A stretch of 64,000 bases of DNA. Source: Escherichia phage nataliec. The translations under genes were made by a program, and so were the position numbers. Positions 3,540 to 5,018 of the stretch are shown one piece after another. Under the pieces are notes generated by a model, which had not been told where the DNA came from, ran no database searches, and saw nothing but the letters and a program-made list of their open reading frames with translations. The stretch lies in sequence record MN850611.1. One strand, 5' to 3'. Each line of letters opens with the position of its first letter. The stretch's first letter is position 1.

Positions 3540-3617
3540 GGGAGATTGACGGTAATTGGTAAACCTATCTCGCTTAGAACGAGATGTTTGAGGGTTCGAA
3601 TCCCTTGTCTCCTACCA
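3540..3617 (+). tRNA. tRNA with Leu anticodon TAG but type I (short variable arm) architecture
   Basis: acceptor gggagat/gtctcct, 6-bp anticodon stem atctcg/cgagat with loop cttagaa, 5-nt variable loop, T-arm gaggg-ttcgaat-ccctt, A73, CCA. Confidence 0.65.
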
Positions 3618-3624
3618 AATTAAC

Positions 3625-3700
3625 GCAGGTGTAGCAAAATGGTTATGCGGCTGACTCTTAATCAGTAAGACGATGGGTTCAATTCCCTCCACCTGTACCA
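3625..3700 (+). tRNA. tRNA-Lys (CTT), paralog of the TTT copy
   Basis: acceptor gcaggtg/cacctgt, anticodon loop ctcttaa, T-loop ttcaatt, CCA; body near-identical to tRNA at 2392-2467. Confidence 0.7.
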
Positions 3701-3706
3701 AAAAAT

Positions 3707-3782
3707 GGGGTCATAGTTTATATGGTTAAAATTCGAGTTTTGCAAACTTGGGAACTGAGTTCAATTCTCAGTGACTCCACCA
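3707..3782 (+). tRNA. tRNA-Ala (TGC)
   Basis: acceptor ggggtca/tgactcc with G3-U70 pair, anticodon loop tttgcaa, T-arm ctgag-ttcaatt-ctcag, CCA. Confidence 0.8.
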
Positions 3783-3788
3783 ATTAGT

Positions 3789-3863
3789 GCATCCATAGTT
3801 TAAACGGGAAAATTACAGTCTTCCAAACTGAGGTTGAGGGTTCGATTCCCTCTGGATGCTCCA
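3789..3863 (+). tRNA. tRNA-Gly (TCC)
   Basis: acceptor gcatcca/tggatgc perfect, anticodon loop cttccaa, T-loop ttcgatt, CCA. Confidence 0.8.
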
Positions 3864-3869
3864 AATAAT

Positions 3870-3946
3870 GCTGCTTTCGTATAATTGGCTATTACACATC
3901 CCTTGTAAGGATGGAGATGCGGGTTCGAGTCCTGTGAGCAGCACCA
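3870..3946 (+). tRNA. tRNA-Thr (TGT)
   Basis: acceptor gctgctt/gagcagc, anticodon arm catcc-cttgtaa-ggatg, T-loop ttcgagt, CCA. Confidence 0.8.
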
Positions 3947-4041
3947 ATTCAGAGGTCAAGTGAAAGACCGCTGGTGTCAACTGAAGACCGTAACAAATTC
4001 CACGGAGTTGAGTTAGCGGCACAACTTCAGACCTCTTTCAC

Positions 4042-4116
4042 ACTCGCTTAGTTTATATGGTAAAACATCACCCTTACAAGATGAAGAAAAAGGTTCAAGT
4101 CCTTTAGTGAGTACCA
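4042..4116 (+). tRNA. tRNA-Val (TAC)
   Basis: acceptor actcgct/agtgagt, anticodon loop cttacaa, T-loop ttcaagt, CCA. Confidence 0.7.
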
Positions 4117-4117
4117 T

Positions 4118-4195
4118 GTTCCAGTATCCCAATTGGCAGAGGATGCAAGCTCAAACCTTGTATTAGTGACGGTTCGAATCCGTCTTGGAACACCA
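4118..4195 (+). tRNA. tRNA with Leu anticodon CAA, type I architecture
   Basis: acceptor gttccag/ttggaac, anticodon arm gcaag-ctcaaac-cttgt, 6-nt variable loop, T-arm gacgg-ttcgaat-ccgtc, A73, CCA. Confidence 0.65.
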
Positions 4196-4200
4196 ATTTT

Positions 4201-4276
4201 GCAGGATTAGTTCAAATGGATAGAGCAACAGTCTACGAAGCTGTTAATAGGGGTTCGAATCCCTTATCCTGCGCCA
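4201..4276 (+). tRNA. tRNA-Arg (ACG)
   Basis: acceptor gcaggat/atcctgc perfect, anticodon loop ctacgaa, T-loop ttcgaat, CCA. Confidence 0.8.
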
Positions 4277-4295
4277 ATTTAAAGAGGCTATTTAG

Positions 4296-4853
4296 ATGAG
4301 ATATTTGAAGTATGCTTCATGGATTTTCTTAGCTTTGTTAGAGCCATTTGCAGCAATCTTAGCAGTTATCTTAGCACCTTTTGTAGTTCCATTCTACAGT
4401 GAGAAGAAAGGACACTTACCTTTCGGGTTCAGATGGATGGAGACATATGACAACCCAATTGATGGTGATGAAGGTCACGTTAAAAGATGGGCTAATATTA
4501 GATGGATTGGTAAACTAGGTGTCTACATGCAAAGAGTCGGATGGCTCTGGAGAAACAAAGCTTATAACTTCTCTTACCATGTATTAGGAAGAGATGTAAA
4601 AGATGTTACTAAGTGGAAAGGTAATATCAACGTAAGTTCTGACCCTGAAGATAATCAGACAGGTTATCTCCTAATGTGGAACAGTAATGCTTGGGGATTA
4701 TTCGCTTTTATCCCATCAATTAAAATCTTTGGTAAAAAATTTTACTGGAGAATTTATATTGGATGGAAACTAAAAAGTGTTGTCCCAGAAGAAAGAGCAT
4801 TCTCAAGGGAAAGAGTTATGTTGGCATTCTTTATTCATCCACTGAGAAAGTAA
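4296..4853 (+). CDS. hypothetical membrane protein embedded in tRNA cluster
   Basis: 185-aa ORF; hydrophobic N-terminus (IFLALLEPFAAILAVILAPFVV). Confidence 0.5.
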   Translation: MRYLKYASWIFLALLEPFAAILAVILAPFVVPFYSEKKGHLPFGFRWMETYDNPIDGDEGHVKRWANIRWIGKLGVYMQRVGWLWRNKAYNFSYHVLGRDVKDVTKWKGNINVSSDPEDNQTGYLLMWNSNAWGLFAFIPSIKIFGKKFYWRIYIGWKLKSVVPEERAFSRERVMLAFFIHPLRK

Positions 4854-4861
4854 AGATTTAA

Positions 4862-4937
4862 AGGGGATTAGTTTACAAGGTTAAAACCTCGGTCTTTGAA
4901 ATCGAAGAAGTTGGTTCAATTCCAACATCCCCCGCCA
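4862..4937 (+). tRNA. tRNA-Gln (TTG)
   Basis: anticodon arm tcggt-ctttgaa-atcga, T-arm gttgg-ttcaatt-ccaac, acceptor (a)ggggat/atccccc with 1:72 mismatch, CCA. Confidence 0.65.
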
Positions 4938-4939
4938 AT

Positions 4940-5018
4940 GCTCCATTACTCCAATTGGCAGAGAGGCCAGACTTAAAATCTGTGTTATGTATCGGTTCGA
5001 ATCCGATATGGAGTACCA
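4940..5018 (+). tRNA. tRNA with Leu anticodon TAA, type I architecture
   Basis: acceptor gctccat/atggagt, anticodon arm ccaga-cttaaaa-tctgt, 7-nt variable loop, T-arm atcgg-ttcgaat-ccgat, A73, CCA. Confidence 0.65.

Follow-up and report, generated by a model that had tools for sequence, protein, structure and literature searches.

The window analyzed here is a stretch of 64,000 nt of Escherichia phage nataliec (MN850611.1), which was scanned over its whole length with ARAGORN and also searched with Rfam. It carries an array of tRNA genes, all of them on the plus strand and many just 2-8 nt apart, and within this array lie three tRNA-Leu genes with the anticodons UAG, CAA and UAA (Table 1). 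The original prediction, made from the sequence alone, had placed three genes with these leucine anticodons (written TAG, CAA and TAA) at this locus, and ARAGORN and Rfam agreed exactly with its coordinates; the matches of all three genes to Rfam model RF00005 had E-values of 4e-7 to 6e-8 (gathering score 29). Canonical type II tRNALeu has a variable arm of more than 10 nt that forms a stem-loop, and in type I tRNAs the variable loop is short and unpaired, without an extra stem-loop; all three genes encode the type I form and none the type II form. The region is 97-99% identical to Felixounaviruses (Felix O1, vB_EcoM_LNA6 and the REP phages), and on this sequence identity the window is assigned to a Felixounavirus, i.e., a Felix O1-like phage. 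In Felixounavirus GenBank records the three genes already carry tRNA-Leu annotation.

Table 1. Features of the tRNA array in the nataliec window
Feature	Position	Strand	Evidence and remarks
tRNA-Leu(UAG), type I	3540-3617	+	ARAGORN Leu(tag), 78 nt; Rfam 44.5 bits
tRNA-Leu(CAA), type I	4118-4195	+	ARAGORN Leu(caa), 78 nt; Rfam 44.0 bits
tRNA-Leu(UAA), type I	4940-5018	+	ARAGORN Leu(taa), 79 nt; Rfam 47.5 bits
tRNA array holding the three Leu genes	869-6213	+	24 ARAGORN tRNAs plus the Glu-like gene at 1321-1395
HNH endonuclease open reading frame (ORF)	963-1319	+	Pfam HNH, 23 bits; between tRNA-Pro and the following tRNA
tRNA-Glu(UUC)-like gene	1321-1395	+	Rfam 55 bits; ARAGORN at relaxed threshold only, missed by default
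tRNA-Tyr(GUA), type II comparator	1793-1880	+	ARAGORN; 88 nt, long arm kept
Aberrant tRNA-like element	2874-2952	+	Rfam 31.7 bits
Weak Trp(CCA)-like element	3101-3175	+	Sec model only, 23 bits, sub-threshold
tRNA-Ser(UGA), type II comparator	3195-3284	+	ARAGORN; 90 nt, long arm kept
DUF7338 protein ORF	4296-4853	+	208 bits; inside the array, between tRNA-Arg and tRNA-Gln
tRNA-Ser(GCU), type II comparator	6041-6133	+	ARAGORN; 93 nt, long arm kept

The architecture of the three genes was established by parsing them segment by segment from the acceptor stem to the CCA end. Leu(UAG) reads GGGAGAU UG ACG GUAAUUGGUAAA CCU A UCUCG CUUAGAA CGAGA UGUUU GAGGG UUCGAAU CCCUU GUCUCCU A CCA; Leu(CAA) reads GUUCCAG UA UCC CAAUUGGCAGA GGA U GCAAG CUCAAAC CUUGU AUUAGU GACGG UUCGAAU CCGUC UUGGAAC A CCA; and Leu(UAA) reads GCUCCAU UA CUC CAAUUGGCAGA GAG G CCAGA CUUAAAA UCUGU GUUAUGU AUCGG UUCGAAU CCGAU AUGGAGU A CCA. 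The parse reproduced the predicted lengths of 78-79 nt, the variable loops of 5-7 nt and A73, the unpaired loops being UGUUU (5 nt) in Leu(UAG), AUUAGU (6 nt) in Leu(CAA) and GUUAUGU (7 nt) in Leu(UAA), and it showed an encoded CCA after A73 in all three genes. Since only 74-76 nt precede the CCA, a type II arm cannot fit in these genes. The segment arithmetic, together with ARAGORN and Rfam, also ruled out another anticodon register or a concealed long arm. The stems have small blemishes, namely a C27.U43 mismatch in Leu(UAA) and, in Leu(UAG), a C11.C24 mismatch and a D loop of 12 nt with one additional U.

A type II leucine gene was sought with ARAGORN in the 64-kb window and in the complete genome of LNA6 (88 kb, 99% identical), which contains 26 tRNAs including the same three short Leu genes, and none was found in either. 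The expectation that the cluster has no type II tRNA-Leu therefore holds across the window and the complete genome of this close relative, and this absence together with the gene calls supports the view that the short genes are the phage's own leucine tRNAs with type I architecture. A phage-encoded leucyl-tRNA synthetase (LeuRS) was considered and rejected, as tblastn with E. coli LeuRS gave no significant match and hence no homologue in the window or in LNA6 (best E = 0.2). With no LeuRS in either, any charging therefore falls to the host enzyme.

The three genes are strongly conserved. Each is nearly unchanged in 250-310 GenBank phage records, with full-length copies of Leu(CAA) in 254 phage records and of Leu(UAA) in 259, 215 of the latter at 99% identity or more, and Leu(UAG) is 100% identical in LNA6, REP12 and others. 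More distant relatives retain the fold. The Leu(CAA) of Erwinia phage Harbringer (Kolesnikvirus) keeps the D arm and has a 5-nt variable loop, and its acceptor and T stems, wholly changed in sequence, are fully compensated. A second Felixounavirus allele of Leu(UAG), found in phage ekra, has eight differences, all of them in the anticodon stem, with four of the five pairs kept. The two alleles thus look like a cassette swap, UCUCG/CGAGA in one and CCAUC/GUUGG in the other, the remainder of the tRNA being identical. In Salmonella phage Si3 and in phage FG1m, hybrid Leu genes derived from recombination between the CAA and UAA paralogues were observed, with crossovers in the shared D loop or T loop and deletion of the intervening tRNA-Arg, DUF7338 ORF and tRNA-Gln.

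Many T5-like phages, OSYSP and GEC_vB_N3 among them, have a Leu(UAG) of type I with 77 nt and 76% identity to that of the window; included here are about 139 records at 60-80% identity, most of which probably belong to T5-like phages. The Leu(UAG) of T5 itself, at 31624-31708 beside tRNA-Ala, is type II and 85 nt long. The same slot beside tRNA-Ala holds the 77-nt type I gene in OSYSP (3693-3769) and GEC_vB_N3, and since the type I and type II sequences are so unrelated, gene replacement rather than simple deletion of the arm is indicated at this slot. The T5 tRNALeu(UAG), which is annotated as convertible to an amber suppressor, was considered as an experimental precedent for the short genes and was rejected, as it is type II and carries no information on the charging of type I.

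The cloverleaf with a short loop was evaluated by covariation in a set of 80 viral type I sequences thinned to less than 85% identity. The results showed that 98.8% of cells were paired, a percentage that is inflated by the pre-filtering of the sequences for a good parse, and that changes had occurred on both sides in 20 of 20 pairs. The covariation score, which that filter does not inflate, was 1.04 for the 80 sequences as compared to at most 0.21 for slid controls, and none of 500 shuffles reached 1.04. Covariation across these diverse sequences strongly backs the cloverleaf. A set of 147 unique type I Leu sequences from viruses had A73 in 146 cases, U8 in 147 and U48 in 146, at positions which the viral search pattern had left free. 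The length of the variable loop in viral Leu tRNAs was bimodal, with one mode at 4-8 nt and the other at 11-17 nt.

Given that any charging depends on the host enzyme, the three tRNAs were compared with the elements by which E. coli LeuRS recognizes its substrates and, segment by segment, with the five isoacceptor sequences of the E. coli K-12 Leu tRNA genes (leuQPV, leuX, leuZ, leuW and leuU). The reported requirements of E. coli LeuRS are A73, A15-U48, G18G19, A20a and the tertiary contacts of the D loop with the T loop, while the anticodon and the long arm of E. coli tRNALeu are not essential, variants without both remaining active (PMC9976931). All three phage tRNAs have U8, A14 and A15, and their variable loop ends in U, so that an A15-U48 pair is available; A73, U8-A14 and A15-U48 are thus common to them and the host tRNAs. 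The host tRNAs and phage Leu(CAA) and Leu(UAA) also have in common a D arm whose stem has 3 bp and whose loop has 11 nt (N-AAUUGGYAGA in the comparison of both, N-AAUYGGUAGA for the E. coli tRNAs); A14, A15, G18G19 and A20a are positioned identically in it, with G18G19 and A20a in the E. coli register. The anticodons UAG, CAA and UAA all exist in the host. A Leu-like D-arm motif was found in just 34 of about 1,350 non-Leu tRNAs recovered as by-catch from the fetched loci, and the motif is therefore largely Leu-specific. The phage tRNAs therefore keep the reported requirements of LeuRS, the G18G19 register of Leu(UAG) aside, and have shed an arm that is reported to be dispensable. The differences from the host are nonetheless considerable. 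The E. coli tRNAs are 85-87 nt long with a stem-loop variable arm of 13-15 nt, as compared to 5-7 unpaired nucleotides in the phage tRNAs; two of the three phage tRNAs carry A at position 9, where the host has G, and the same two carry C at position 13, where the host has G or A; and core identity is merely 38-53% for phage Leu(CAA) and Leu(UAA).

The codon usage of the phage fits the anticodons of the three tRNAs. Leu codon usage was compared between 63 ORF-derived gene proxies of the window and a sample of 37 annotated genes from E. coli. UUA accounted for 27% of Leu codons in the phage and 15% in the E. coli sample, CUA for 11 and 3%, CUU for 28 and 11%, and CUG for 15 and 49%, respectively, and usage of UUG was alike in the two. 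The anticodons UAA, CAA and UAG serve UUA and CUA, which are poorly covered by the host pool, and this is classical codon compensation; the UAG anticodon might also read CUU.

We consider it probable that the three genes are functional phage leucine tRNAs that are charged by the host LeuRS, the loss of the arm being tolerated. They would be transcribed within the tRNA array and then processed, and the LeuRS of the host (E. coli or Salmonella) would attach leucine with no need of a long variable arm, recognizing A73 and the elbow made up of the D and T loops (U8-A14, A15-U48, G18G19 and A20a). In decoding, UAA would read UUA and UUG, CAA would read UUG, and UAG would read CUA and CUG and possibly other CUN codons, in an AT-rich phage whose usage of UUA and CUA exceeds that of its host two- to fourfold. 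Loss of the arm would be possible because leucine is the one bacterial type II isotype with an arm-independent synthetase, and the Ser and Tyr tRNAs of the array keep their arms. The loss would have been tolerated, through inheritance of a type I lineage or through streamlining, rather than being demonstrably adaptive.

An experimental link to charging is provided by studies of swapped-code bacteria. In derivatives of E. coli Syn61, a "bacteriophage-derived (GenBank MF402939.1) tRNALeu(CGA)" reads TCG as leucine, as described in a 2026 preprint that follows Nyerges et al. 2023 (PMC13596443). The accession is that of the T5-like phage OSYSP, a complete genome of 110,901 bp with 27 tRNAs, and our scan of this genome found just two Leu genes, both of them type I and 77 nt long. 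Because the OSYSP Leu genes are only of type I, it would follow by elimination that a phage tRNALeu of type I is charged in vivo by E. coli LeuRS irrespective of the anticodon, and decoding by the OSYSP-derived tRNALeu may be taken as indirect in vivo evidence of type I charging. The OSYSP tRNALeu, which was reportedly used as the anticodon-swapped "viral tRNALeu(YGA/CGA)" of swapped-code E. coli (Nyerges et al. 2023; PMC13596443), resembles those of the window in being type I, with 77 nt including CCA, a 5-nt loop (GUUUU), A73 and A15-U48, and it differs in coming from another phage family and in its D loop, G-AAUUGGCAUA. As far as their text was examined, the swapped-code papers contain no remark on the missing arm. 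A second parallel is found in the minimalist E. coli tRNALeu constructs without the arm of Larkin et al. 2002, which, as cited in the review, are charged and edited if A73 and the D/T contacts are intact (PMC9976931); as described there, these constructs were laboratory-made, whereas the phage genes occur in nature and are both conserved and widespread.

Several points weigh against the reading of the three genes as functional tRNAs charged by the host enzyme. E. coli LeuRS could not charge the type I tRNALeu(CAA) of Streptomyces (Fan et al., 2019, PMC6614811), the variable loop of which has five nucleotides and is thus near the phage loops in length, and the same study describes E. coli LeuRS as charging only type II tRNALeu and the Streptomyces LeuRS as the only prokaryotic enzyme that charges both types. 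Given the first of these statements, the suggestion in the original prediction that the architecture bears on LeuRS recognition was apt. The link to OSYSP was made by elimination. The G18G19 register of Leu(UAG) may differ, given its 12-nt D loop and C11.C24 mismatch. Thermodynamic folding gave the genes weak support, with z-scores of -1.4 to -1.8, and the minimum free energy structure of Leu(UAA) is not the cloverleaf. The failure of E. coli LeuRS with the Streptomyces tRNA may be explained by the presence of C48 in that tRNA, where the phage tRNAs have U48 and also keep A73.

The S. coelicolor type I tRNALeu(CAA) resembles the phage tRNAs in its short variable loop, which is unpaired and has about 5 nt, and in that its D and T loops are canonical (PMC6614811), and a D arm of the form UA-NCC-CAAUYGGCAGA-GGN is common to the actinobacterial type I Leu(UAA) genes in our genome sample and the phage CAA and UAA genes. 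It differs in having C48 and in that A73 is no identity element for its own LeuRS (PMC6614811), whereas the phage tRNAs keep U48 and A73, and in that it is not charged by E. coli LeuRS, whereas the phage tRNAs must use an enterobacterial LeuRS. The phage tRNAs therefore do not belong to the Streptomyces type, which is defined by a 5-nt loop ending in C48, a dispensable A73 and a LeuRS with the Streptomyces-type leucine-specific domain; such a LeuRS is supplied by neither the phage nor the host. Animal mitochondrial type I tRNALeu (e.g., human mt-tRNALeu(UUR)) likewise has no long arm and uses A73 and A14 as identity elements (PMC9976931), and it differs by its degenerate D and T loops and dedicated mitochondrial LeuRS from the phage tRNAs, which have canonical elbows (G18G19 and UUCRANY) and would be charged by a bacterial LeuRS.

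We next consider how common the short form is; all prevalence figures here and below are from samples among the matches listed and are not a census. A short-gap pattern scan of IMG/VR, which selected for brief spacing between the anticodon loop and the T arm only and covered at least 120 loci, yielded 192 ARAGORN Leu genes, about 158 of them 73-80 nt long. A pattern that is neutral with regard to the arm (GAACC N{14,40} YTNAG N9 TNTRCCRRTT) was then run on viral contigs and bacterial genomes. In the viral sample type I genes occurred in 30 of 120 loci (25%), and when every ARAGORN Leu gene in these loci was counted 52 of 175 (30%) were short, whereas in bacterial genomes 10 of 119 pattern-bearing Leu genes (8.4%) were type I. 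Eight of these ten were actinobacterial Leu(UAA) genes, consistent with the known Streptomyces case. Genes of 80 nt or less made up 2 of 100 Ser genes and 6 of 41 Tyr genes in the phage loci. The median number of tRNAs per locus was 7 for loci with type I genes and 2 for loci with type II genes only, and since type I loci carry more tRNAs the short genes are part of true tRNA arrays of phages. Short-armed Leu tRNAs are therefore common in phages and their prevalence is under-appreciated; the architecture, which had been predicted to be unusual, is so for cells but not for phages, where it makes up about 25-30% of the sampled tRNA-Leu genes. Type I Leu genes outside the actinobacteria were found in a Planctomycetota contig of a metagenome-assembled genome (MAG), with two such genes 36 nt apart and one of them encoding CCA, and in an Ahniellaceae MAG; these may be prophages or phage contigs binned into MAGs.

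The most economical account of the loss of the arm is that it is tolerated because LeuRS has no need of an arm, and that a single type I lineage, or a few, spread through the phages. The nearest neighbors of type I sequences are type I in 83% of cases and type II in 17%, the tRNAs being too short to resolve origins. An adaptive alternative, which we regard as unlikely although it deserves attention, is that short-armed Leu tRNAs decode leucine and at the same time evade host nucleases that recognize or cut the long arm of type II tRNAs. There is a precedent in Septu and retron-Eco7, which cut the variable loop of tRNATyr, and T5 tRNATyr escapes them by a different loop (PMC13096335); however, an arm-directed nuclease is known for Tyr, and this isotype mostly retains its arm in phages, and we found no report of a defence nuclease aimed at the variable arm of tRNALeu. 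The enrichment of type I Leu in viral contigs over bacterial genomes (25-30% versus about 8% among the matches listed) and its association with phage arrays of several tRNAs (a median of 7 tRNAs per locus as compared to 2, likewise among the matches listed) would fit such evasion, but relaxed constraint, or a single lineage that spread horizontally, would account for the phage enrichment equally well. The two Leu(UAG) alleles differ solely by the swap of the anticodon stem, as diversifying selection on nuclease contacts would give. The broader claim, that short-armed tRNALeu is a major phage class of at least about a quarter which was selected as invisible to nucleases acting on type II arms, and that this is a general principle of anti-defence, is in our judgment similarly improbable. 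If it were true, it would overturn both the statement that tRNALeu is type II except in animal mitochondria and the statement that enterobacterial LeuRS charges only type II.

The genes might also not serve as adaptors at all, being decaying pseudogenes, processing punctuation of a polycistronic tRNA transcript or decoys for host factors. In Rfam they score lowest (44-47.5 bits) of all class I tRNA matches in the array, a small stem blemish is reported in each, and the array also contains two clearly aberrant elements (2874-2952 and 3101-3175). Decay or a merely structural role is nevertheless hard to reconcile with near-identical copies in 250-310 phage genomes, with compensatory stem changes in more distant relatives, with the essentially invariant A73, U8 and U48 of the 147 viral sequences, with the retention of the elbow nucleotides and an encoded CCA, with anticodons that fit the over-used phage codons, and with a homologous type I tRNA that appears to function in E. 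coli, and we hold it to be very unlikely. Still less credible is the idea that the tRNAs are reassigned or mischarged and insert another amino acid at UUR or CUR codons, which the original prediction had mentioned in speaking of reassigned species. Loss of a class-defining arm could in principle shift discrimination among synthetases, and some phages do recode; against this, the 3-70 pairs of the Leu tRNAs are G-C, U-A and U-A, so that the G3.U70 of alanine identity is absent, as is the long arm of serine identity, the anticodons were judged, by reasoning only, not to suit the anticodon-reading synthetases considered, and the set of LeuRS determinants is present, the G18G19 register of Leu(UAG) aside. 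All six Leu codons occur in the 63 gene proxies at ordinary frequencies (7.9% of codons) and nothing there points to recoding; with the LeuRS identity set kept, that suggestion is not supported. Tolerated loss of the arm in tRNAs charged by the host LeuRS is thus the reading we retain.

No new kind of molecule is described here, as type I tRNALeu is already known from animal mitochondria and Streptomyces and the Felix O1 genes are annotated as tRNA-Leu. The short-armed form in phages and its prevalence are unmentioned in the reviews, which state the opposite generality, and no published description of either was found in the literature, although subscription-only literature may differ. In hundreds of sequenced coliphages and Salmonella phages, among them the classic Felix O1 and numerous T5-like phages, all Leu tRNAs encoded are short-armed and a LeuRS is lacking. 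Charging of these tRNAs, to which the evidence points, would mean that both the general statement that tRNALeu is type II and the stated limit of E. coli LeuRS need amending. The class offers a natural, conserved minimal substrate for the study of recognition and editing by bacterial LeuRS without the arm, and it may help to explain why phage-derived tRNALeu succeeded where cellular tRNAs had failed in swapped-code, virus-resistant strains. It also offers a testable hypothesis, namely evasion of tRNA-targeting defence systems, and its interest would be higher if this, or a distinct mode of LeuRS recognition, proved true.

The remaining members of the array were also surveyed. A full CCA is encoded by every array tRNA except tRNA-Ser(UGA). 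The cluster had been predicted to contain tRNAs for every other amino acid, which holds for most of them but not for Trp. Neither Glu nor Trp was called by default ARAGORN in the window; Glu(UUC) is recovered by Rfam and relaxed ARAGORN, and the sole Trp candidate in the array, the weak element in Table 1, is not a convincing gene. The Glu-like gene has C instead of U at position 33 in a hand fold, and its sequence is unlike that of the LNA6 Glu gene. The aberrant element at 2874-2952 lacks a D arm and has CUUCUAA (UCU) as its anticodon loop, some 23 nt in its variable region, G3.U70 and A73-CCA, and the matching interval of LNA6 holds a canonical tRNA-Arg(UCU). In the spacer that follows tRNA-Ile (2567-2872, plus strand), two sub-threshold matches to tmRNA models (29 and 16 bits; gathering score 47) are probably due to chance. 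The DUF7338 protein is apparently a membrane protein, judging from its own sequence and the annotation of its relatives. In LNA6 the Pro and Glu genes are 7 nt apart with no HNH ORF between them, and because of this absence the HNH ORF of the window looks like a mobile homing-endonuclease insertion.

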